Virus record (IMG/VR): IMGVR_UViG_3300038595_000016
Strand: one strand, 5' to 3'
DNA from: a virus
Length of the DNA stretch: 39,387 nucleotides
In this document: piece by piece, positions 128-33,459 of the stretch
How the letters are laid out: each line of letters opens with the position of its first letter
How positions within the stretch are numbered: position 1 is the stretch's first letter
The notes under the pieces: model-generated
The model's database searches: none
What the model was told of the DNA's origin: nothing
Seen by the model: the letters and a program-made list of their open reading frames with translations, nothing else
Made by a program: the position numbers and the translations under genes

Positions 128-3100
128 TTCTTGGCGCTCCGCTACTTGGTGCTATCACTGGTATAGCCGCGTCTCTTGGTACAGTTTTATTGCCATCGCT
201 TTTTGATGCTGACGATGCAACAGATAAGTTAAAAGAGACGCTTGAAGCGATCGACAAAGTTGCAGTTCAGGCGGCTGGCGGGACATTTACGCTGACCGAA
301 GAAATTGCACGTCTTGCTAAAGTTTCAGAAACAGCCGCAAACGCTCAAATTGCGCTATCAATCACAGAGGCAACACAAGCCATCAATCTAGCCAGAGAGT
401 CAGCGAGTGACGCGGTATCTGAGCTGGATGATTTGTTTAATGGCTTTGACGTTGTGTCAACCCCTGACATGATTGACAAGCTAAACGCAGCGATGGGGCG
501 CACAGGCCTGTCTGCGTCCGAGTTAATAGAAACTACAAATCTTTACGCCACTGGATTAACTCAAGTTAAATCGTTCTCAAAGTCTTTAAATAACAGCCTT
601 GGAACAACAACCGAGCAGTCGATTCAATTAATCAGGGCTGTATCTCAATTCCGCTCAGGTGGTAGCGTTTCAGACCTTGCTAATACATTTAGTGAAGTAT
701 CACTTAGCGCTAAAGGAGCTACAAAAGAATTTCAGTCTCTAGCAGTTCAACTTAACGCAATGGCGCTGACAACAGAAAAATCAGAGTCAGTGCTAACTCT
801 GCTGAAAGAGGCGATGGGAGACCTTGACGGAATTCTAAATAATTCAGAGTCAGCCGTTAACGATATAATCGATTCGTTTGTCATGAAAACCGAAGCACTT
901 CACGCTGACGAAGTTCAAATGGCGAAAAACATCGCAATGCAAGCGGCTGGCGCTGATGCCACTGAAGCAGAAAAGGAAAAGATAGAGTCCGCCATTGATG
1001 CCTACTACAGGAAGCTGAACGCAATAAGAGCGGAGGAAAAAGCCCAACGAGATGCTAGGGTTGAGCGAGAGAAAGCAGCAAGAGAGGCGGAAAGAGAGGC
1101 TGAGGCGATTCAGCGCGCGGCAGACAAACAAGCACAAGCCTACTCAAGATGGATTGAACAGGTTAAAAATGCAGTTGACCCAACAATCAAGCTGCAAGAG
1201 GAAATCTACGACCTTTGGCTTGCTATGTTTGCTGGTGATATTGATGAAGATGTAGCAACGGCAAGAATAAAGCAACTTGAAGAGCAAATTGCTAGCTTTA
1301 AAGACGTAGCGAAGGATTCAGACGTCAACCCATACGAGGGGTTGGCAAGCGGTGCTATGGAGTACCTCACTGCTATTCAAATGCTTTCTAAGGACGGCTC
1401 GGACTCATTCAAAGAGCTAGAGAGAGCCATTGCAGCGTTAAGTATCACTCAATCGCTGGCGACTGGTAATATTGCAGGTGCGATCGCATCCGGTGCGAGC
1501 TTGCTTACCACTTTCGACAAAGGTCTTGGTGATGACATTAGCGCAGAGATTCAAGCTAACCAAAACCTTGATGATTTAGGTGAAAAAGCGGACTCAATCT
1601 CTATAGCCACTAAAACGACCGCAGACGCTACCGATAAGCTAGTCGGCATTAACACTAAGATGCTAAACGCGCTAAAGACCGTTCAAAATGGCATTACTGG
1701 CGCGTCTGGAATGGTTGCTAGGGATAGAGCAAAAGCGTCAATTGATATTGGCGGCCTTGGCATTCTTGATAACCTGCTAACGTCTACTGGCCTTGGCAGC
1801 TTCTTGACTGACGCGCTCGACATATTCAATAAGTTTACATTCAACTTCTTGGGAAGTGTTGGTAGTAGCATATTCAAGTCCATTGGCGGCCTGCTTGGTG
1901 GCTCATCAAAAGTAAAAGATGAGGGTATCAGGATTATTGGCGGGTCTCTATCCCAGCTAATGGACGATGTAACCGTTCAAGCATTCCAGAAGGTTAAATA
2001 TAAAAAATGGAGATTTGGTAGCAGCAAAACAAAAACCAAGTTTATTGACGCTGGTAACTCGGTAGGAAACCAATTCTCTTTAGTTTTTGAATCAATAGCC
2101 GACTCGGTTGCGGCTGGTGCTGACATTTTAGGTATTAGTCAGGATGAAATTGAAAAGAGAATCAACTCATTCAGGATTTCAACCCAGACAATATCACTCA
2201 AAGGGCTAAGTGCTAGTCGTCAACAAAAAGAGATAGAAGCATACTTTAGCAGAGTTTTTAACAATCTATCTGTTAGTGTTATCCCATTTATTAGAGAGCT
2301 TCAAGTTGCTGGTGAGGAGCTTGGCGAGACGCTATCTCGCGTAGCAACTCAAACATCAATCGCTGAATACTTGATTGATAACTTCGGTGTGACGTTCGCC
2401 GACAAGGTGGCAGACCCTAGAGCGTTTGCTATCGCTGCTGATAACTTGGCTAATTTCGCTGGTGGAGCTGAGGCGTTAGCTGAGCAAGTCTCATCGTTTA
2501 CCGATGCGTTTGCTAGCGACACAACAAAACTAAACATCTATCAAGAGTCATTGGTTGGAGCTCTTCGTGATGTTGGGCTGTCACTACCAAGCACATCCGA
2601 GGGTTTGTTTGATTTAATGTCATCGCTGGATGGAACAACGGAAGCGGGACAAGAGCAGATTGCAACTCTGTTAAAAGTAACAGGCACGGCAGACGCTTAT
2701 TACAAATTGCTAGATAACACCGCAGGGAGATACCGAGAGGCGGCAGAGTCACTATTTGATGTTAGCTTTGCGGTGGAAAAGGTTGCTCTAGATTCAGCGG
2801 TGGCTGCTGCTAGATTGGGCGATTTTAGTTTGGCTGAGGCTTTGGATTTGAAATCGCTGACTCCTTCTAAAAGTGATTTCTCTTCGCTAATTGATTACAA
2901 TGTTGCAAGAGCTGAGACTGCTGCGAAGCTAAACGAGCTGGCAGACCTGCAAACAGGGAAAGTGTCAGTTGACGAGAAGCAGTTAAACGTCCTTGAGCAA
3001 ATTAGAGACTCATTGCAAAACCAAGCAACGAAAGAGGCGGACGGCTCTATGATTTCAAAATTAACAGAGCAAATGACAGCGCTTAAATCAGAGTTCCAAG

Positions 3101-7906: not shown

Positions 7907-7949
7907 ACTATACCCAATCCGAACCAAGTGCGCTGTGACCGACTTCACA
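7907..7949 (-). promoter_or_regulatory. Class II CRP-type promoter for the 7873 gene
   Basis: Perfect TGTGAccgactTCACA at 7934-7949, then exactly 21 nt, then TATAGT (plus-strand coordinates 7907-7912, read on the minus strand). No -35 element. Confidence 0.7.
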
Positions 7950-11389: not shown

Positions 11390-11432
11390 AATATACAAAA
11401 AGACCGCGCATCTGTATGTGATGGCGGTCACG
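11390..11432 (-). promoter_or_regulatory. Class II CRP-type promoter for the 11357 operon
   Basis: The minus strand reads cGTGAccgccaTCACA (11432-11417), then 21 nt, then TATATT (11395-11390). One mismatch in one half-site. Confidence 0.6.
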
Positions 11433-23554: not shown

Positions 23555-23954
23555 ACAAAGAGGCAGAGGGGCGCCCACTAAGTACAAAGAGGAGTACTGT
23601 GACCTAATTGTAAGCATGGCAAAAGAGGGCGCTAGTTTTACCGAGTTCAGGGCTGCAATTGGTGGGGTGACAAGGCAAACGCTTCACAATTGGAAAGAGG
23701 CACACGACGAATTTTTAGACGCATATACGCGTGCAGAGGTCGAAGGTGAGGCGTATTGGGAAAGGCAGATGCGAAAGGACCTTATGTATAACAAGGAGGT
23801 AAATTCACCCCTAGTTAAACTTTACTTTGCTAATCGCTTCGGTTGGTCTGATAAAACAGAGACCAAGAACGACCACACATCTAGCGACGGCTCAATGTCG
23901 CCAGAGCGAAAAACACTAGATGACTTCTATGCAGATGACTCCAACTCTAAATAA
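23544..23954 (+). CDS. terS: Terminase small subunit
   Basis: GRGAPTKYKEEYCDLIVSMAKEGASFTEFRAAIGGVTRQTLHNWKEAHDEFLDAY...ANRFGWSDK is a typical HTH-type TerS pattern. Lies upstream of terL. Confidence 0.85.
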   Translation: MSNKQRGRGAPTKYKEEYCDLIVSMAKEGASFTEFRAAIGGVTRQTLHNWKEAHDEFLDAYTRAEVEGEAYWERQMRKDLMYNKEVNSPLVKLYFANRFGWSDKTETKNDHTSSDGSMSPERKTLDDFYADDSNSK

Positions 23955-25317
23955 GAACCTTAAGTCTTTCTGGAAAACAAAAGTTACACCGGATAACGAT
24001 CCGGTTATTGGTCGTGTGCTTTATGGAGGGCGCATGTCGTCTAAGTCGCATGATGCTGCTGGCGTGGCAATAGCAAGGGCAAACTACAGAGAGGAAAGGT
24101 TTTTATGCACTCGGATGTATCAGAACCGGATAGCTGACTCTGTTTACACCTTGCTAAAGGATAAGATTTCCTATTTCGGTCTTCAAAGCCAATTCAAGAT
24201 ATATGCTGACGCAATAGAGCACAAGTATAACGACTCTTTATTTAGGTTTTACGGTATAGCAAGAAATATCGACGAAATAAAATCATTTGAGGGTGCTACA
24301 GTATGGTGGAACGAGGAAAGTCACAATTTAACCGAAAACATGTTTACTATTATCAGGCCAACAATAATGCGCAACGAAGGCGCAGAAATGTGGTTTACAT
24401 TAAACCCTGGCGTGATGAGTGATTACAGCTACCAGAGGCTGATAGCCAACCCACCAAAGGGCTTTCTTGTTCGCAAGATTAACTATGATGAGAATGGCTT
24501 TCTTGGTAAGCAGGCGTTAATGGATATAGCCAATGAGTTTGATGAGGATTATGAACTTGCCGAGCACATTTATCTCGGAGTTCCATATTCTGACGACGAC
24601 CAAGCAATCATTAAACGCTCTTGGCTAGAGGCTGCCGTTGATGCTCATATCAAATTGGGTATTGATTTATCAGGTGGTAGAACGGTTGGTTATGACGTTG
24701 CTGACAGTGGCGACGATAAAAACGCGGTTGCTGTGTTTAATGGGTCAATATGCGATCACATTGAAGAGTGGAAAGCTGGCGAGGATGAGCTGGAAAAGTC
24801 AGCTATGCGCGCATGGTCATTCGTTCACGATGGCTGGCTTGTTTATGACTCAATCGGTGTGGGTGCTCACGTTGGTTCCACTTTGAACTCGAAGGGCTTT
24901 TTAAGTGGATACAGTAAGTTTAACGCTGGCGCAACCGTTGAGCGTCCCGATGATAAATACGCGCCTGACATTCGCAATAAGGATAAGTTTGAGAACTTAA
25001 AGGCCCAAGCTTGGCAAGATGTTGCGGATAGGCTGAGAAATACATACAACGCAGTTAACAAAGGGATGAAATTTGAGCCTAGCGAATTGATCAGCATATC
25101 AAGTGATATTGATTGTCTTGAAAAACTAAAAACAGAGCTTTGCACGCCAAGAAAAGACACATCGAAGCGTGGTCTTGATATGGTTGAGAGTAAAAAGGAT
25201 TTGGCGAAGCGTGACGTTGCGTCACCGAACAAAGCAGACGCTTTTATTATGGGCGCTTGTCCTCACCTAGTTAAGAGAGAACCACCAAAAACCGAAACCA
25301 ATGTGTGGTTGATTTAA
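23920..25317 (+). CDS. terL: Terminase large subunit
   Basis: Walker A-like VLYGGRMSSKSH. ATPase N-domain and nuclease C-domain lengths are typical, and it follows TerS. The start is ambiguous (ATG 23920, 23929 or 23935). Confidence 0.85.
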   Translation: MTSMQMTPTLNKNLKSFWKTKVTPDNDPVIGRVLYGGRMSSKSHDAAGVAIARANYREERFLCTRMYQNRIADSVYTLLKDKISYFGLQSQFKIYADAIEHKYNDSLFRFYGIARNIDEIKSFEGATVWWNEESHNLTENMFTIIRPTIMRNEGAEMWFTLNPGVMSDYSYQRLIANPPKGFLVRKINYDENGFLGKQALMDIANEFDEDYELAEHIYLGVPYSDDDQAIIKRSWLEAAVDAHIKLGIDLSGGRTVGYDVADSGDDKNAVAVFNGSICDHIEEWKAGEDELEKSAMRAWSFVHDGWLVYDSIGVGAHVGSTLNSKGFLSGYSKFNAGATVERPDDKYAPDIRNKDKFENLKAQAWQDVADRLRNTYNAVNKGMKFEPSELISISSDIDCLEKLKTELCTPRKDTSKRGLDMVESKKDLAKRDVASPNKADAFIMGACPHLVKREPPKTETNVWLI

Positions 25318-26935: not shown

Positions 26936-26966
26936 ATTAGCCACCATTACCAAACCTTGCTAAAAT

Positions 26967-26995
26967 GCCTCTATATCAAACATAGAGGCTTTTTT
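26967..26995 (+). terminator. Rho-independent terminator ending 1 nt before the portal ATG
   Basis: GCCTCTAT-atcaaac-ATAGAGGC followed by TTTTTT and then ATG 26996. The 3' arm supplies the only SD (AGAGG). Confidence 0.75.
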
Positions 26996-28423
26996 ATGCT
27001 TACAGTAACCTACCATCCAGACTATCTCGAAAACGCCCCTCAGTGGCTGCGCAATTGGGATTGCGTCATGGATAACATCAAGCGCAAGAAACAAACCTAT
27101 CTGCCAAACCTTGGCGCTATTCCACCTGAAGCAAAGACTGACCCAAAAGTAACCGCACTTGCTGCCAAGATTGAGAAGGATTGGGAGGATTTAACCTGGC
27201 GTTTGGCTAACTACGTTAACATCGTTAACCCTACTATGAATGCGATCACTGGCGCCGTGATGCGCCGCGAACCAGAGTTCGATACGGTGGACAATCCGGT
27301 GTTAATGGGCTTGCGTGACAACCTAGACGGCAAAGGCAACGGCATTGACCAAGAGTGCAAACAGGCGTTAAACGCACTGCAATGGGGCTCTCGCTGTGGT
27401 TGGCTGGTTCGCTCACATCCAGAATCGGCAACAATGGCGGATTGGAACAAAGGTAAAAAGCTACCTACGTCCGCATTCTATGACGCATTACATATCATTG
27501 ACTGGGAGGTTGAATATATCGACGGTGAAGAAAAGCTGACCTACTTGTCATTGCTTGAGGATTGCCAAGAGCGAGACGGAGGCACGTATGTTTCAAAGCA
27601 AAAGTTGATTAACCACCGCTTAGTTAACGGACTTTGTGAATACCAGGAAGTGACGGACGACGAATACACCGATGAGTGGACACCTGTTTTAATTAATAAC
27701 AAGCAGTCTGATACAATCCCGTTTTTTCTTGTATCCTCGCAATCTAACGAATGGGCGATTGACTCCACGCCGTTAACATCACTGGCTGAAATCTCGCTGT
27801 CTATCTATGTTATGAATGCCTATTCCAACAAGGCCATGATTTTAGCCAATGAGGCTAAGTGGATGGTTGATATGGGTGATATGGATAAGACAATGAATGA
27901 GGAAATGAACCCGCTTGGCTTCACGCTCGCTGGTCGTATGCCTTACTACGTTAAGAATGGCGATGTAAAGGTTATTCAAGCCCAATTCTCACCAGAGACA
28001 GAGAACAAGGTAGAAAAACTATTCGAGCAAGCCGTTAAGGTTGGTGCAAGTCTATTCACGCAACAATCAAACGAGACAGCTACAGGCGCGGCTATTCGCT
28101 CAGGCGCATCTACTGCAAGCATGGCAACCCTTGGTAATAACGTAGAAGATACGGTGCATAATATGCTGCGTTTTATCATGCGCTACTTTGAAGGTACTAA
28201 TCTGCATGTGAAACCTGATGAGTTGGTGTTTAAGTTGAATCGTGATTATTTTGATGTTGAGGTCAATCCGCAGATGCTACAGGTGGCTTACGCGGCTATG
28301 ATGGAAGGTAACTTGCCTCAAGTGTCATGGTTTGAGTTATTAAAACGTGCGCGTGTTGTCCGTGGGGATATGTCAAAAGAAGAATTCGACGAGCATATAG
28401 CGGAGCTTGGTTTCGGAATGTAA
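26996..28423 (+). CDS. Portal protein
   Basis: 476 aa. It is the first large ORF after terL and lies upstream of the Mu-F-like head protein. The N-terminal YHPDYLENAPQWLRNWDCVMD resembles portals of the DUF4055 type (from memory). Confidence 0.7.
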   Translation: MLTVTYHPDYLENAPQWLRNWDCVMDNIKRKKQTYLPNLGAIPPEAKTDPKVTALAAKIEKDWEDLTWRLANYVNIVNPTMNAITGAVMRREPEFDTVDNPVLMGLRDNLDGKGNGIDQECKQALNALQWGSRCGWLVRSHPESATMADWNKGKKLPTSAFYDALHIIDWEVEYIDGEEKLTYLSLLEDCQERDGGTYVSKQKLINHRLVNGLCEYQEVTDDEYTDEWTPVLINNKQSDTIPFFLVSSQSNEWAIDSTPLTSLAEISLSIYVMNAYSNKAMILANEAKWMVDMGDMDKTMNEEMNPLGFTLAGRMPYYVKNGDVKVIQAQFSPETENKVEKLFEQAVKVGASLFTQQSNETATGAAIRSGASTASMATLGNNVEDTVHNMLRFIMRYFEGTNLHVKPDELVFKLNRDYFDVEVNPQMLQVAYAAMMEGNLPQVSWFELLKRARVVRGDMSKEEFDEHIAELGFGM

Positions 28424-29456: not shown

Positions 29457-30524
29457 ATGGCAGAAACAGCACTGGCAACAACGCTATCGCATGAAATAGC
29501 ACTTATCCGGTTTAGTCGGTCACTTGGTCGTAATGCACAGACGCATATTGACGCGATTATGAAAGCGCTGCGTGAAGAGTTGCTATCAACCGATACAATC
29601 CCAACAAAGAAGCGCCGTGATGAGCTTCTAGCGCTTGTTAATGAGCTAATTGGTGTAGAGCTTGGAGGCTGGTCAGAAGAACTAGAGAGCGAGCTTGTTG
29701 CGCTTGCTAAGGAAGAGGCGAAGTTTCATCAGGCTTCGCTATCGAATCTAATTGGTCAGAAAATCGCACGACCAACGCTAGAGTCGATCATTAAGACTGC
29801 ATTTAACACTGAGATGGTTTTAAACAACCAAGCCTATACAGTCGATGAACGCATCAAAAATTACAATGCAAACTCTGCTGATAGAATTAAGCGCATTGTT
29901 ACTGGTGGCTGGCGTGACGGTTTGACCACTTACGAAATGAGCCAGCAGATTACAGGCAGACAAAACTCATCGGTTAGCAACCAGATGAAGCGCGGGTCAT
30001 TTACGTTAGCTAAGGACGTGACAAGTCACATTTCGTCAACCGCTAAGACTTCGGTTGGTATGGCTAATCAGGATGTGGTAATTGGTGAGGCTGTAGTCGT
30101 TACACTCGATAGTAGAACAAGTCCAATTTGTCAGCGTTTGGGCAGTCTTGATGGTGGTGGCAAAAAATATTACTACGCGAAAGATGGATTTAACTTTCCG
30201 AGAAATCCTTTCCATTGGAATTGCCGTTCCACTATGCGCTATATCCTTTCCGATGAATTCGAAGAGCTAGAAGAGCCGCGCACAAGGCCAGCAGTTGTCC
30301 AGGGCAAGGCTAAGCGTGTGGATAGTGAAAAATCATGGCTTGATTTGGCTAAGGAAAATAAAAACCTTGCTATAGAGTCACTAGGTGAAGAAAGAGCGAA
30401 GTTATTGGAGGGCATGTCATCAGAAGAGTTTGTGAAACTTGCTTATGATCGCATGGGGAATCCAATTACTCTTGACCAACTTGTGGCCAAGAGCAAAAAA
30501 GCCGCTAGGATTTTGAAGAGATAG
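29457..30524 (+). CDS. Head morphogenesis protein (SPP1 gp7 / Mu F-like minor head protein)
   Basis: LDSRTSPICQRLGSLDG...NFPRNPFHWNCRSTMRYI matches the Phage_Mu_F signature (T..C..l.g...pP.H.nCRc). Confidence 0.85.
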   Translation: MAETALATTLSHEIALIRFSRSLGRNAQTHIDAIMKALREELLSTDTIPTKKRRDELLALVNELIGVELGGWSEELESELVALAKEEAKFHQASLSNLIGQKIARPTLESIIKTAFNTEMVLNNQAYTVDERIKNYNANSADRIKRIVTGGWRDGLTTYEMSQQITGRQNSSVSNQMKRGSFTLAKDVTSHISSTAKTSVGMANQDVVIGEAVVVTLDSRTSPICQRLGSLDGGGKKYYYAKDGFNFPRNPFHWNCRSTMRYILSDEFEELEEPRTRPAVVQGKAKRVDSEKSWLDLAKENKNLAIESLGEERAKLLEGMSSEEFVKLAYDRMGNPITLDQLVAKSKKAARILKR

Positions 30525-30529
30525 GAATT

Positions 30530-30549
30530 GGGAGCTTCGGCTCCTTTTT
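30530..30549 (+). terminator. Rho-independent terminator
   Basis: GGGAGC-ttcg-GCTCC followed by TTTTTCTTT. Confidence 0.8.
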
Positions 30550-30554
30550 CTTTA

Positions 30555-30597
30555 TGTGACCATTATCACAACATTGCCACATCAGCTAGGGTATAGT
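30555..30597 (+). promoter_or_regulatory. Class II CRP-type promoter for the 30627-31265 cassette
   Basis: Perfect TGTGAccattaTCACA (30555-30570), 21 nt, TATAGT (30592-30597). GGAGG SD before ATG 30627. Confidence 0.7.
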
Positions 30598-30626
30598 TTG
30601 TGCTGTTGGATTAATGGAGGCTACAA

Positions 30627-30941
30627 ATGAAAAACAACAAAGTACGCATGAACATTTCACGCGAAATGCACGAATGGTTTACCGCTATTGATGGGAAGAC
30701 TAATGATGAGAGAATGAGGCGAGTTATTGAAATAAATGACGACTACAAAGCCTTGTTAGTCAGAAGCAATAAATTGGAAAAAGCGCTACAAGAGTCTCGC
30801 AAGGTTAATCGCGAGTGGTTCGGAAAGATGATGATGTATCGTGCGAATAATTCCATCCTTAAAAGCCTGTTTGTGTCGTCAGTGGCAGCATCAATCATTT
30901 CTGTTGGCTATCTAGCCTATGCGCAAGGGTGGTTTTTATGA
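30627..30941 (+). CDS. Hypothetical tail-anchored membrane protein (104 aa)
   Basis: Soluble coiled-coil N-part and a C-terminal LFVSSVAASIISVGYLAYAQGWF TM segment. Confidence 0.7.
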   Translation: MKNNKVRMNISREMHEWFTAIDGKTNDERMRRVIEINDDYKALLVRSNKLEKALQESRKVNREWFGKMMMYRANNSILKSLFVSSVAASIISVGYLAYAQGWFL

Positions 30942-31123
30942 AAGTAAGCGAATTGTGCGGAGTTGGCTCATCAAGTGCCGCAAAAGGATTCAAAAAAGAT
31001 GCAGAACAGCGCGACATGATTAAGCATCGAGAAACCAAGCGTCGTGATATTGAAGATATCAACCAATTCATGGCAACGCTGGCGGAGATATGTCCTGAAT
31101 ACTACGGGAGCAAAAATGATTGA
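30938..31123 (+). CDS. Hypothetical 61-aa protein
   Basis: ATGA overlap with the upstream stop. Confidence 0.6.
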   Translation: MKVSELCGVGSSSAAKGFKKDAEQRDMIKHRETKRRDIEDINQFMATLAEICPEYYGSKND

Positions 31124-31265
31124 CCAACGCACGAAAGGCATATGCAAAAAGCGCGCGACATTCACAAATGCGCCTTCATTCAAAGAGCATCAAGAGTTTA
31201 TGCGTGAGTCTAGTCGCGCAATGTGGAAGAAGTACATAAAAGATATTAAAGACAACCGCCCATAG
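31116..31265 (+). CDS. Hypothetical basic 49-aa protein
   Basis: GGGAG lies 5 nt before ATG 31116; 8-nt overlap with the upstream gene. Confidence 0.55.
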   Translation: MIDQRTKGICKKRATFTNAPSFKEHQEFMRESSRAMWKKYIKDIKDNRP

Positions 31266-31278
31266 TGGCGGTTTTTCT
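31254..31278 (+). terminator. Rho-independent terminator overlapping the stop of the 31116 gene
   Basis: AACCGCC-catagt-GGCGGTT followed by TTTCTTTATTT. Confidence 0.75.
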
Positions 31279-31282
31279 TTAT

Positions 31283-31310
31283 TTGATATGCGTCACAGTT
31301 TTGCTATAAT
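31283..31310 (+). promoter_or_regulatory. Near-consensus sigma70 promoter with no ORF downstream
   Basis: TTGATA (31283-31288), 16 nt, TATAAT (31305-31310). A TTTGA-N6-TCACA near-palindrome (31282-31297) overlaps the -35 and spacer. Confidence 0.65.
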
Positions 31311-31316
31311 TGGGTT

Positions 31317-31437
31317 GTTGATTGGTGTGGTAGCCGATAGACAAAGATAGGGTTTAGTCAGACTTATTGAGAACAAAAGCTTTCATCATTACGCCTTTGT
31401 TACTACCACCTCAGTAAGTCCGCCTAAGCCCTTTTTT
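31317..31437 (+). ncRNA. Candidate ~120-nt phage sRNA (about 33-nt 5' tail, long imperfect hairpin, U6)
   Basis: 31350-31371 pairs with 31410-31431 (20 of 22 pairs, counted by hand) and 31372-31380 pairs with 31393-31401 (8 of 9). The GGG/CCC clamp is followed by TTTTTT at 31432-31437. Stops occur in all frames. Confidence 0.45.
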
Positions 31438-31635
31438 ATTGCCTTTCACACCCTCATATCAACCGCTTTCTAGCGGGCTTTGCACAGCGTTACCAAACCC
31501 GAACAATTTAACTATATGATGCTAAGCAATACGACTTTTGAGCCGAGGAAAAAGCAGGTTTCTAAGTGGTGATTATCGGCACGAAAAATAACGAATTGGG
31601 TCACTCCAAGTTTTTAGCCTAGTAAGTTAAACGTT

Positions 31636-31721
31636 ATGTGTCACACGAGCGACAACTCTATACTGTTCTGCATATTGTGATTGTTTAGACTACATCAAAA
31701 GGGCTTATTAATGTGTCACAC
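31636..31721. repeat. Two copies of ATGTGTCACAC (31636-31646 and 31711-31721), 75-bp period, inside the ORF-free island
   Basis: Read directly. The core TGTG-T-CACA is an inverted repeat. Each copy is followed 9-10 nt later by CTCTA(T/A). Confidence 0.8.
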
Positions 31722-31767
31722 CACTTAAAGGCTCTAATGACCACTATTCTTTAAATTTAGCCTACAG

Positions 31768-31811
31768 TTGCCTGTCAATGTTAAATGCCTTAAAATGTGA
31801 GCTATGACACA
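31768..31811 (+). promoter_or_regulatory. Sigma70-type promoter for the scaffold/capsid operon, with a palindrome copy abutting the -10
   Basis: TTGCCT (31768-31773), 17 nt, TAAAAT (31791-31796). TGTGAgctatgaCACA (31796-31811, one mismatch) starts at the last base of the -10. Confidence 0.5.
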
Positions 31812-31849
31812 GATTCGCGTTGATGATGTGGGAAAATGAGAGGCAACAA

Positions 31850-32500
31850 ATGGAACATTACATTCTTGAACAGCTTCAAGCCAATGGTTTTGAAGTAAAC
31901 GTACCCGAAGATTTCGACGTATCAAAGCTGGACGCAGTGATTGAGAACGCGCCGCAAACTGATGGGCTACGAAAGGGTTTAGAGCGAACAAAGACCGAGC
32001 TGCAAGGCTTAAAAACCGAACGTGAGGAAATTGAACGCGCTGCTGAACAGGCTAAGCGAGAGAAACTAGAAGCAGAAGGCAAGTTTGAAGAGCTACGTCA
32101 ATTAGACCGCCAAGAGCTTGAGAAGCTGCAATCTAGTCTTGTTACAAGTCGTGCAGAATCATTAAGACAGCAAGCTAAATCAAAGTTTAGCCAAGACGCT
32201 GACTTGATTGAATACGCACTGTCACAGCATATTAAGCCTAAGTTTGAGAATGGTCAGGTGGTTGATACCTTCGAGTTTAACGGCAGTCAGTACAATAACT
32301 TTGATGATTACTTTAAAGCTCTATCAGCTAACGACCAGTTTGCTTCGAAAATCAAAGCACCCGCATCAAGTGGCGCACACGCTGCTGGTGGTCAAGGGCA
32401 ACATGCGGTTACACCTCACCGCTCTAAGATGAGTGCGACAGAAAAGCGCGCGTATCAACAAGAGTATGGTCAGGAAGCATATTTGAAACTACCAAAGTAA
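31850..32500 (+). CDS. Capsid scaffolding protein
   Basis: GAGAGG lies 7 nt before ATG 31850. Glu/Lys/Gln-rich coiled coil (KTELQGLKTEREEIERAAEQAKREKLEAEGKFEELRQ), immediately upstream of the major capsid gene. Confidence 0.7.
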   Translation: MEHYILEQLQANGFEVNVPEDFDVSKLDAVIENAPQTDGLRKGLERTKTELQGLKTEREEIERAAEQAKREKLEAEGKFEELRQLDRQELEKLQSSLVTSRAESLRQQAKSKFSQDADLIEYALSQHIKPKFENGQVVDTFEFNGSQYNNFDDYFKALSANDQFASKIKAPASSGAHAAGGQGQHAVTPHRSKMSATEKRAYQQEYGQEAYLKLPK

Positions 32501-32511
32501 GGAATTAGCAA

Positions 32512-33459
32512 ATGGCTACTACAGTAAACTCTGATTTAGTAATCTACAACGACACGGCCCAGACTGCGTACCTAGAGCGCAACATGGATAACCTTGCCGT
32601 GTTTAACGAAAACTCACGCGCTGCGATTGGCCTGAACTCTGAGCTAATCGAAGGCGATTTGAAGCTGCGTTCGTTTTACAAGGTGGGCGGCTCTATCGCT
32701 GACCGCGATGTAAACTCAACTGCTACCGTTGCGGGTACTAAGATTGCCGCAGATGAAATGGTATCAGTGAAAGTGCCTTGGAAATACGGCCCATACGAAA
32801 CAACCGAAGAAGCATTCAAGCGCCGTGCACGTTCGCCTGAAGAGTTCTCTGAAATTATCGGTCAAGATATGGCAGACGCTACAATGTCAGGTTGGATTGG
32901 TTACGCACTAAACGCGCTGCAAGGTGCGATTGGCTCTAACGCTGGCATGAACGTATCAGGCGAGCTTGCAACCGAAGGCAAAAAAGTCCTTACTAAAGGC
33001 CTGCGCACGATGGGCGACAAAGCATCATCTATCGCAATCTGGGTGATGGACTCAACCTCTTACTTCGATATTGTTGACGAGGCAATCGACAACAAGCTTT
33101 ATGAAGAAGCTGGCGTAGTAGTCTACGGTGGCACACCGGGCACGCTCGGTAAGCCTGTTTTGGTTACTGACCAATGTCCGGCAACCAAGATTTTCGGTCT
33201 TGTAGCTGGCGCGGTAATGATTACTGAGTCACAAGCGCCAGGCATGCGTTCGTACATGATTGACGACCAAGAAAACTTGGCAATCGGCTTCCGCGCTGAG
33301 GGCACAGCTAACGTAGAAGTGCTTGGTTACAAATGGAAAACCAAAACAAACGTTAACCCGTCTGCTGCTTCACTTGCTACTACTACCAACTGGGAGAAGT
33401 ACGCAACGAGCGACAAGGCAACGGCTGGCTTTATCATCACACTAACAACTACGCCTTAA
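32512..33459 (+). CDS. Major capsid protein
   Basis: 315 aa. AAGGA SD. Follows the scaffold and is followed by a strong terminator. Composition and size are typical of HK97-fold coat proteins. Confidence 0.75.
   Translation: MATTVNSDLVIYNDTAQTAYLERNMDNLAVFNENSRAAIGLNSELIEGDLKLRSFYKVGGSIADRDVNSTATVAGTKIAADEMVSVKVPWKYGPYETTEEAFKRRARSPEEFSEIIGQDMADATMSGWIGYALNALQGAIGSNAGMNVSGELATEGKKVLTKGLRTMGDKASSIAIWVMDSTSYFDIVDEAIDNKLYEEAGVVVYGGTPGTLGKPVLVTDQCPATKIFGLVAGAVMITESQAPGMRSYMIDDQENLAIGFRAEGTANVEVLGYKWKTKTNVNPSAASLATTTNWEKYATSDKATAGFIITLTTTP

Follow-up and report, generated by a model that had tools for sequence, protein, structure and literature searches.

A probable mobile structured-RNA cassette with its own promoter in the head gene module of a Vibrio siphophage

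Just upstream of the scaffold gene, the head module of the virus IMGVR_UViG_3300038595_000016 is interrupted by an island (positions 31266-31849) that seems to encode no protein. What is such an island doing between morphogenesis genes? We analyzed the whole 39,387-nt stretch (the window), which comes from a phiHSIC-like Vibrio siphophage. An earlier reading of the letters (the original prediction) had seen here a promoter and a stand-alone small RNA (sRNA) of ~120 nt, ending in a hairpin and a run of U residues. We find that the island very probably holds a genuine conserved structured-RNA cassette of which this hairpin is only the 5′ domain. For the reading that we favor as a whole, in which a promoter and a two-domain RNA move together between phages and act by the mechanism proposed below, we estimate a probability of about 0.5.

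Insert boundaries, promoter and two covarying RNA domains

The island was predicted to be free of open reading frames (ORFs), and we find none of >30 codons on either strand, the conservation of small ORFs not having been tested; the longest plus-strand ATG ORF has 20 codons (31288-31350) rather than the 17 first counted. The boundaries of the insert can be read from the closest relatives, P23, vB_VaS_L1 and phiHSIC, which lack it. In these three phages the terminator of the upstream operon is identical in sequence and is followed directly by GCCTGTTGCC, and alignments place their cassette-less junction at ...GGCGGTTTTTCTTT joined to GCCTGTTGCCTGTCAATG. The window has 479 extra bp between the same two points, starting at the −35 element of the promoter and ending in ...UUUAAAUUUA. 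The terminator belongs to the phage backbone, outside the insert, and the island itself is a horizontally acquired insert. vB_VnaS-L3 carries the same insert at the identical site, together with a DNA methylase gene.

As predicted, the promoter comes right after the terminator (31254-31273). It is a sigma-70 promoter, TTGATA-N16-TATAAT, with 11/12 consensus matches and a TG extended −10. The distance from TATAAT to GTTGATT is fixed in nearly all homologs, and two loci (L139 and L146) have the form TTTGCA-18-TATAAT.

The first RNA domain, domain A, consists of a weak 5′ hairpin (P0), a long hairpin built of P1, P2 and P3, and the U-run (Table 1). The pairing that had been proposed for the long hairpin holds, with 20/22 pairs between 31350-31371 and 31410-31431 and 8/9 between 31372-31380 and 31393-31401, and U6 follows the GGG/CCC base at 31432-31437. 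The fold of 31317-31440 has an energy of −41.5 kcal/mol (z = −5.75), which none of 200 shuffles reached. The hairpin is also conserved in relatives with compensatory changes, in line with the original prediction. Covariation was assessed overall in ~20 independent sequences. An alignment that was fitted to R1, our covariance model of the nested helices, and has some rows from the reverse strand shows 86.4% of cells paired, compared with 66% in shuffles; 38 of the 43 pairs are changed on both sides, compared with 13-20 in slid controls. R1 scores the window at 91 bits forward and 17 in reverse. It detects domain A on the plus strand of most cassette loci, upstream of every detectable B/C-type domain, and finds zero matches in cassette-less relatives. 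The divergent copies in NF, L008/L100 and 1.116.O/1.085.O are missed by R1; a domain-A-like sequence with the pseudoknot described next is visible there by eye.

The 33 nt ahead of the hairpin had been taken for a free 5′ tail. We find instead that this region is engaged in P0 and in a covarying pseudoknot (PK1), in which a stretch of 5-8 nt pairs with the asymmetric internal loop on the 3′ side of the hairpin. Its two strands are perfectly complementary in the window, and among 20 distinct homologs 19 show perfect Watson-Crick pairing. The paired strands come in at least 14 versions, including GUCGAAG/CUUCGAC, GUCGUGU/ACACGAC, UGAGACC/GGUCUCA and GUGGAAAC/GUUUCCAC. Pair counting failed for PK1 and for the second pseudoknot (PK2, below) because MAFFT and covariance-model alignments shift the loop strands by 1-3 columns; we therefore compared, sequence by sequence, the complementarity of each strand to its own partner and to the partners in other RNAs. 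For PK1 the own partner gives a mean of 6.7 bp and cross-pairing 3.8 bp. Since the sequence of the 5′ tail varies freely between homologs, it offers no conserved single-stranded seed.

The ~320 bp of the island beyond the hairpin are conserved structured-RNA sequence as well, not spacer, and form domains B and C. In domain B, three pairs of the longer helix are changed on both sides; 1.003.O, for example, has GCAAUUUA/UAAAUGC. The complement of the conserved single-stranded CGAACAAUUU has no other occurrence in the window. RNAalifold on 10 homologs gives 43 pairs for B and C together, of which 21 have compensatory double changes. Paired cells reach 93.7% compared with 79.8% in shuffles, and compensated pairs number 21, where shuffles give 12.9 and slid partners 1-5; in neither measure do any of 500 shuffles reach the observed value. 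PK2 joins the loop of the 3′ hairpin to the core of domain C by a 9-nt perfect complement, and 11 distinct compensatory versions occur in 22 homologs, e.g. UUCGAUGG/CCAUCGAA and GAUGGAUUG/CAAUCCAUC. The loop of the 3′ hairpin holds the second AUGUGUCACAC box. Two identical ATGTGTCACAC boxes lie 75 bp apart, and because of the PK2 pairing they are best seen as paired RNA strands, not as operators.

Two further observations concern strand and selection. G:U cells outnumber A:C cells by 59:8 in B and C (42:16 in A), which argues for a plus-strand RNA; the promoter and the transfer RNA (tRNA) genes of homologs are on the same strand as the RNA model. All helices are intact in the window, where some compensated pairs are specific to it, e.g. 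CUAAGCAAU/AUUGUUUAG and GAG/CUC, suggesting that selection on RNA structure continues there.

Beyond the 3′ hairpin, the cassette ends in a conserved tract with a mini-ORF and an AU-rich stretch, and in most homologs AAGGA and the start codon of the following gene come directly after this tract. The insert of the window stops just short of the expected AAGGA position, and the scaffold ATG is 90 nt downstream. The length of the mini-ORF (AUG, four codons and UAA) is kept in six lineages; it is longer in three and broken in NF (AUG ACA UAG), and sizes over the lineages run from 2 to 7 or more codons. The peptide across homologs is M-(I/T/N)-(T/S)-I-(I/L/V). The mini-ORF could be a coupling upstream ORF for the downstream gene or a mere RNA motif.

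The apical loop of domain A differs between subfamilies, and the loop CAUCAUUACG is kept within one of them. In one subfamily the apical loop AUCAUUA (31386-31392) is complementary to the 3′ motif UAAUGAU (31734-31740), the match being 6 nt long in the window and 7 nt long in vB_VnaS-L3. The other subfamily lacks this pairing, and its loop repeats the GUCACUU motif of a domain C hairpin loop. We also observed an 11-nt perfect complementarity between 31425-31435 (the P1 3′ strand and U-run) and 31697-31707 (the 5′ strand of the 3′ hairpin). We rejected it as a conserved pairing, as homologs keep only AAAAG/CUUUU; it could be an alternative fold of the full-length RNA or chance. The folds show no upstream competitor for P1, and the only alternative partner of its 3′ strand is this unconserved downstream one.

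Table 1. Features of the cassette and of the surrounding head module, in window positions.
Feature	Position	Strand	Remark
Cassette (promoter and non-coding RNA)	31281..31759	+	479 bp, between terminator and native scaffold-gene upstream region
Sigma-70 promoter	31283..31310	+	−35 TTGATA 31283-31288, TG 31302-31303, −10 TATAAT 31305-31310
Domain A	31317..31437	+	~121 nt; P0, P1, P2, P3, then U6
P0, weak 5′ hairpin	31321-31338	+	paired in 66% of cells only
PK1 5′ strand GUGGUAG	31327..31333	+	loop of P0
P1	31350-31357/31424-31431	+	
P2	31361-31372/31410-31421	+	
P3	31373-31381/31393-31401	+	
PK1 3′ strand CUACCAC	31403..31409	+	3′-side internal loop between P3 and P2
U6	31432-31437	+	directly after GGG/CCC-based hairpin
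Domain B	31438..31511	+	CCGC/GCGG hairpin, helix, conserved single-stranded stretch
Domain B hairpin CCGC/GCGG	31463-31476	+	register uncertain
Domain B helix CGGG-UUUG/CAAACCCG	31474-31482/31494-31501	+	100% paired
Conserved single-stranded CGAACAAUUU	31500-31509	+	domain B
Domain C core	31518..31697	+	RNAalifold and covariation
Domain C closing helix GAUG-CUAAGCAAU / AUUGUUUAG..CAUC	31518-31530/31680-31696	+	11/14 pairs compensated
Domain C helix GCAGG/UCUGC	31554-58/31667-71	+	
PK2 5′ strand UAAGUGGUG	31563..31571	+	
Domain C helix GCAC/GUGU	31579-82/31638-41	+	
Domain C helix AUAACG/CGUUAU	31588-93/31632-37	+	
Domain C hairpin UUGG[GUCACU]CCAA	31596-31609	+	conserved loop
Domain C hairpin UUUAGC[CUAGUAA]GUUAAA	31613-31631	+	conserved loop
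Domain C hairpin GAG[CGACAA]CUC	31647-31658	+	conserved loop
3′ hairpin AGGGCU/GGCUCU	31700..31735	+	96.7% paired; 2 pairs changed on both sides
PK2 3′ strand CACCACUUA	31719-31727	+	loop of 3′ hairpin
Conserved 3′ end	31733..31759	+	UCUAAUGA, mini-ORF, AU-rich UUUAAAUUUA
Mini-ORF AUG ACC ACU AUU CUU UAA	31737-31754	+	after conserved UCUA
Intrinsic terminator of upstream operon	31254..31280	+	AACCGCCCATAGTGGCGGTT and TTTTTCTTT; terminator scan (31254-31273)
TTTGATATGCGTCACA (TTTGA-N6-TCACA)	31282..31297		1-mismatch copy of TGTGA-N6-TCACA; overlaps −35 and spacer
Native scaffold upstream region, outside cassette	31760..31849	+	~89-92% identity to P23, vB_VaS_L1, phiHSIC
Promoter-like TTGCCT-N17-TAAAAT	31768-31796	+	native scaffold upstream region
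Palindrome TGTGAGCTATGACACA	31796-31811		native scaffold upstream region
Terminase large subunit	23920-25317		
Portal	26957-28423		
MuF-like head-morphogenesis protein	29457-30524		
Scaffold gene	31850-32500		ATG at 31850; protein matches PHROG 206
Major capsid	32512-33459		

Spread, tRNA genes and module exchange among Vibrio phages

Every one of the 47 phage records matched in a BLAST search with the island has a Vibrio or Listonella host. In ~8 of them only flanking genes match, and in ~39 the non-coding part does, at 70-80% identity. The ~39 cassette copies lie in 500-770-bp gaps, almost always without an annotated feature, in carrier genomes of 36-49 kb with different neighboring genes. 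We found at least four unrelated genome types among the carriers: 36-38 kb V. breoganii phages; 41-49 kb V. lentus, V. cyclitrophicus and F12/F13 phages; the group of NF, phiV208 and Seahorse; and the phiHSIC-like pair. The genes next to or downstream of the cassette encode methylase, HNH, T5orf172, Ser/Thr phosphatase, tailspike, scaffold and hypothetical proteins, which is not the single functional class that a riboswitch or attenuator would be expected to precede. The cassette is always co-oriented with the downstream gene and usually also with the upstream genes. Pattern scans added ~12 true copies in IMG/VR and 5 in JGI metagenomes. Across 185,579 bacterial species genomes, the exact domain B pattern gave 25 apparently chance matches and none in Vibrio, so the cassette does not look like the copy of a host gene. 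The family appears, so far, to be confined to Vibrio siphophages. It shows that a promoter and a structured RNA can pass as one piece, a non-coding "moron", from phage to unrelated phage.

In four lineages (L139/L140, L146 and L030/L037), 2-3 tRNA genes lie exactly between domains A and B. These are Trp and Arg(UCU) in 1.116.O and 1.085.O, Trp, Arg and Gly in Seahorse, and Ser(GCU) and Arg(UCU) in two IMG/VR contigs. In three lineages the first base of the tRNA directly follows the last base of the domain A model match (L146 1247/1248, L030 2281/2282, L037 936/937). The only plus-strand sigma-70-like promoter upstream of these tRNAs is that of the cassette. Because the tRNAs have no promoter of their own, the hairpin and U6 must be read through or processed, and they cannot be an efficient transcription end. 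With the tRNA 5′ end placed directly against the U-run in tRNA-bearing homologs, every version could plausibly yield a discrete product of ~120 nt. These results bear directly on the original prediction, which ended its RNA at U6. A conserved, strand-specific structured RNA with a promoter is indeed present; it is the 5′ domain of a larger RNA rather than a stand-alone unit, since a conserved ~320-nt domain and, in some homologs, tRNA genes follow the U-run without a promoter of their own.

ARAGORN finds no tRNA or tmRNA in the window. NF carries, at ~2871-3010 (locus L003) between domains A and B, an element of ~140 nt with a 7-bp acceptor-like stem GTGTCTG...CAGACAC and two T-loop-like GGTTCGA sequences, and similar stretches occur in L008/L100. 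Neither ARAGORN nor Rfam calls a tRNA in the NF element, which may represent two degenerate tRNAs or else something tRNA-like.

The cassette has a modular build. Modules A (31305-31449), B (31426-31511) and C (31511-31760) match different subsets of records; A and B of the window are nearest to vB_VnaS-L3, and C is nearest to V. breoganii and IMG/VR copies. Domain A, always promoter-proximal, is the most widely kept module. We observed alternative 3′ domains of ~300 nt that replace C at loci L147 (1.131.O)/L031, L143 (2.095.A)/L145 (F89), L144 (1.135.O) and L148 (1.039.O). Cassettes with such alternatives retain their promoter and domain A, as a rule domain B as well, and several (1.131.O, L031) keep the GGUCUAAUGA-type 3′ end. 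This pattern looks like domain swapping within the cassette family.

A non-coding unit between morphogenesis genes had seemed unusual, and the setting makes it less so. The island is preceded by three small ORFs after the MuF-like gene, and comparison of this stretch (window 30530-31265) with L005, L006 and L007 shows that the set of small ORFs changes from one phiHSIC-like phage to the next. Because these ORFs differ in each relative, the head module has a hypervariable slot for accessory sequences ("morons") from the MuF-like gene to the scaffold gene, and the position of the island within this slot is therefore less odd than it was at first look.

The near-copy of a palindrome over the promoter is present where it was predicted, TTTGA-N6-TCACA at 31282-31297 being a one-mismatch copy lying over the −35. 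It is common only to the cassette of vB_VnaS-L3, and the other cassette lineages lack it. With at most one mismatch, TGTGA-N6-TCACA has 16 sites in the window, compared with 1.6 expected. Perfect sites are at 7934, 13298, 25320, 26131, 26842, 29440, 30555, 35599 and 39110, and one-mismatch sites at 11417, 17133, 20920, 31282, 31796, 34126 and 37642. Many copies lie at gene boundaries, such as 29440 just before the MuF-like ATG (29457) and 30555 after a terminator, and the copy at 31796 coincides with the predicted start of the native scaffold promoter. The set resembles the CRP consensus and looks like operators of a phage-wide regulator or of host CRP. In other lineages the −35 and spacer lie within an inverted repeat, with a 12-bp stem ACCCACC...GGTGGGT around the −35 in Seahorse (L146, 1078-1108) and CCCCAC...GTGGGG in V. 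lentus-type phages. These repeats could be lineage-specific operators or upstream terminators.

Weighing the possible roles of the RNA

We propose that transcription would start near 31317 and yield a plus-strand RNA of ~443 nt with two domains and two pseudoknots. The first ~121 nt would fold as domain A, with the P0 loop pairing to the internal loop of the long hairpin ahead of the U-run. The hairpin and U6 would serve as a leaky terminator or a processing boundary, such that some transcripts would stop there as a ~120-nt RNA and the remainder would extend into the ~320-nt domains B and C, with their closing helix, multi-stem junction and PK2. In the absence of a 3′ terminator, transcription would proceed into the downstream gene, which in the window means scaffold and then major capsid. 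In tRNA-bearing phages, RNase P would cut at the 5′ end of the tRNA and thereby free domain A, whose 3′ end would be the one that termination gives. The domains would then act as stable folded RNAs, an accessory, phage-borne and tRNA-linked "ornate" RNA like GOLLD and ROOL. Partial read-through, processing, stability and action in trans are the parts of this scheme that we infer.

That the main role of the cassette is that of a free-standing functional RNA, rather than of a cis-acting leader, we hold tentatively and at slightly less than even odds. We favor it because the fold is elaborate, because the cassette is conserved above any protein gene shared by the carrier phages and is independent of the identity of the downstream gene, and because it is intact in the window, where the adjoining ribosome-binding site has been lost. 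Additionally, its layout of a 5′ region, a tRNA linker and a 3′ region is GOLLD-like (PMC12286853).

Several results weigh against this reading. No terminator was found 3′ of the cassette at any locus examined, and in at least 10 lineages UCUAAUGA, the mini-ORF and UUUAAAUUUAAGGA lead directly to a Shine-Dalgarno sequence and start codon, an arrangement that suits an mRNA leader better than a free-standing RNA gene. Cassettes differ in their 3′ domain, and since it can be replaced, a single conserved function of domain C in trans is not guaranteed. Domains B and C show no thermodynamic signal in the single sequence (z = −0.36 on the plus strand, with the minus strand folding better at z = −1.83), so that their structure is drawn from covariation alone, in ~10-22 related sequences with partly structure-fitted alignments. 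P23, vB_VaS_L1 and phiHSIC do without the cassette, and because such close relatives lack it, it must be dispensable for basic growth. Lastly, we infer the start site, the termination efficiency and the stability of the RNA from sequence features.

The first alternative is that the cassette is a cis-acting expression cassette, a ~440-nt 5′ leader that travels with its promoter and a translation-initiation region; we consider this possible, if on balance unlikely, as the main role. Domain A would act during transcription, as an attenuator or as a protein-independent processive antiterminator or anti-Rho element like HK022 put or EAR RNA, by which RNA polymerase would cross its own hairpin and U6, the untranslated stretch of tRNAs and domains B and C, and downstream terminators. 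The 3′ hairpin, mini-ORF, AU-rich tract and Shine-Dalgarno sequence would set translation of the downstream gene. The promoter-proximal position and wide retention of domain A fit this, as do the read-through of the hairpin and U6 that tRNA expression needs, the constant orientation toward the next gene with no terminator between, and the constant length of the mini-ORF in six lineages. The conserved end ...UCUAAUGA..UUUAAAUUUAAGGA-N5-8-AUG also leads directly to the start codon in vB_VnaS-L3, NF, 1.003.O, 1.265.O and 1.016.O, likewise in L013, L030/L056, L031 and Seahorse, and in L070 with a GUG start. However, the downstream genes (methylase, HNH, T5orf172, phosphatase, tailspike, scaffold) are unrelated, which makes a gene-specific sensor unlikely, and tRNA processing would sever domain A from the mRNA. 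In the window and in V. breoganii phages the start codon is 85-100 nt further away and AAGGA is absent, yet all helices are kept. Folds revealed no alternative antiterminator pairing, a multi-helix pseudoknotted fold of ~300 nt exceeds the usual needs of a leader, and the mini-ORF is broken in NF. A free-standing RNA and a cis leader are compatible and not mutually exclusive.

A more novel reading is unlikely in our estimation. The cassette would belong to a new, tRNA-tied class of "ornate" RNAs, with a 5′ domain that is a protein-independent antitermination or anti-Rho module and a 3′ domain that is a catalytic or self-assembling RNA. The 5′ module would license an untranslated RNA operon of tRNAs and an exchangeable 3′ domain, a compact analogue of GOLLD and ROOL.

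The stand-alone RNA of the original prediction, a ~120-nt trans-acting sRNA of the Hfq type or an RNA antitoxin that ends at U6 and has nothing to do with the rest of the island, we now regard as improbable. Its 5′ tail or apical loop would pair with host or phage mRNAs. The strong promoter, the stable hairpin with U6, the tRNA 5′ end abutting the U-run in tRNA-bearing homologs and the conservation of the CAUCAUUACG loop in one subfamily all agree with it. Against this, the 5′ tail is held in P0 and PK1 and varies with compensation, the apical loops are subfamily-specific, and no unpaired seed is conserved family-wide. Domain A is always accompanied by the 320 nt after it, which are themselves conserved and covarying RNA, and the conserved single-stranded motif of domain B, CGAACAAUUU, finds no complement elsewhere in the window. 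An antitoxin in particular does not fit, as neither ToxI-like tandem repeats nor an ORF of >30 codons was seen (small-ORF conservation was not tested).

Hardly credible is the last alternative, in which the RNA structure is incidental to a DNA-level element (an operator cluster, a replication or packaging site, a recombination hotspot) or to a decayed protein gene: the TGTGA-N6-TCACA-like site over the promoter, the two ATGTGTCACAC boxes and the lack of a single-sequence thermodynamic signal in B and C would suit a DNA element, but compensatory double substitutions occur in long-range helices and two pseudoknots where slid and shuffled controls fall short, G:U exceeds A:C on one strand, each box is one strand of a base-paired helix and has a variable position that changes together with its partner, and tRNA genes lie within the same transcription unit, while homolog indels that are not multiples of three and stops in every frame speak against a decayed gene.

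Comparison with known RNA systems

The cassette matches no family that we could name. The search of Rfam 15 suggested by the original prediction gave zero matches in the window at gathering scores or at E up to 10, apart from noise such as rimP and sraL, and zero matches at E up to 0.5 in 10 homolog loci. Our literature searches turned up no description of the cassette family. Several resemblances were judged by eye and rejected. The GGGUCAC..UAGCC match to Qrr sRNA is only partial, with no Rfam match, and the likeness to rrn or lambda boxA is confined to AACAAUUU, the GCUCUUUA core being absent. The RNase P CR-I candidate GAGGAAAAAGC is unconserved in homologs, and the group I intron R element candidate AGACUACA is likewise unconserved. 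A group II domain V would have a 5-bp stem only, and for an HDV-like or theta ribozyme downstream of the tRNAs no P1 complement was found.

Hfq-dependent sRNAs share with domain A a dedicated promoter, a length of ~120 nt and a 3′ hairpin like a Rho-independent terminator with a U-run of at least six residues. Unlike them, domain A has no conserved accessible seed, its 5′ region is pseudoknotted, and beyond its "terminator" the transcription unit goes on with a second RNA domain and, in some phages, tRNAs. The lambdoid late leader, PR′ - 6S RNA - tR′, combines a strong constitutive promoter and a short structured leader with a terminator before the late genes. HK022 put acts in cis without a protein and consists of two simple stem-loops of ~70 nt. 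The cassette resembles both in having a strong promoter and a short structured leader at or crossing a terminator upstream of structural genes. It differs from the late leader in that Q protein and qut features are not apparent, though they were not searched for, from put in that domain A is a pseudoknotted 120-nt fold, and from both in that a conserved structured domain of 320 nt, and in some phages tRNAs, come after it. The position of domain A fits an antiterminator of the put or EAR type; Rfam, EAR included, gives no match. Species 1 and 2 of the T4 tRNA cluster (rnaC/rnaD) are small stable RNAs of ~120-140 nt that are co-transcribed and processed with phage tRNAs at the end of the large cluster. 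By this description, as small stable phage RNAs processed with tRNAs, they can be likened to the cassette RNA.

GOLLD RNA is an Rfam family that goes back to Weinberg et al. 2009. GOLLD and ROOL are phage RNAs found near tRNA islands, and the linker between the 5′ and 3′ regions of GOLLD sometimes contains tRNAs (PMC12286853, PMC5737381). The cassette is like GOLLD in being phage-borne, in having 5′ and 3′ regions with a linker that sometimes holds tRNAs and in having multiple pseudoknots; GOLLD has been studied by cryo-electron microscopy (PMC12286853). It is like ROOL in being a complex-folded RNA of phages, with several pseudoknots; ROOL occurs in phages and prophages, often near tRNA islands (PMC5737381; PMC12286853). 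It does not match the Rfam model of either one, and it is confined so far to Vibrio siphophages, unlike ROOL. It is also smaller than both, at ~440 nt compared with >800 nt for GOLLD; set against the size of >500 nt and multiple junctions that mark GOLLD and ROOL, it has ~443 nt, two pseudoknots and one multi-stem junction. The 5′ domain of the cassette is universal and the 3′ domain exchangeable, which is the reverse of GOLLD, and its promoter is conserved as part of the unit with a 3′ end that abuts the ribosome-binding site of the next gene. The conserved promoter, the universal 5′ domain with pseudoknot and U-run, the exchangeable 3′ domains and the terminal translation-initiation region set the cassette apart from GOLLD and ROOL together. 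GOLLD is reported to be dispensable for phage production (PMC7567579, citing Harris & Breaker). The Vibrio phage ICP1 makes, as its most abundant transcript, a non-coding RNA of ~800 nt from an ORF-less island of ~1 kb adjoining late genes (PMC7567579). The cassette shares with it an ORF-less island near late genes in a Vibrio phage; sequence similarity is lacking, as the 47 BLAST records do not include ICP1, and ICP1 has no tRNAs.

In layout the cassette RNA thus appears closest to GOLLD and ROOL, and probably not homologous to them. Large, intricately folded RNAs are rare in bacteria and phages, and GOLLD and ROOL have no assigned function 9 to 17 years after their description, partly because they occur in systems that are hard to handle. 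Dozens of Vibrio phage isolates carry the cassette (the Nahant collection, NF, Seahorse, vB_VnaS-L3), their hosts can be cultured, and the natural cassette-minus sisters P23, vB_VaS_L1 and phiHSIC provide ready-made genetics, which opens tRNA-linked phage RNAs to experiment. If the cassette does represent a new tRNA-tied "ornate" class, what such RNAs do in phages could be tested directly.

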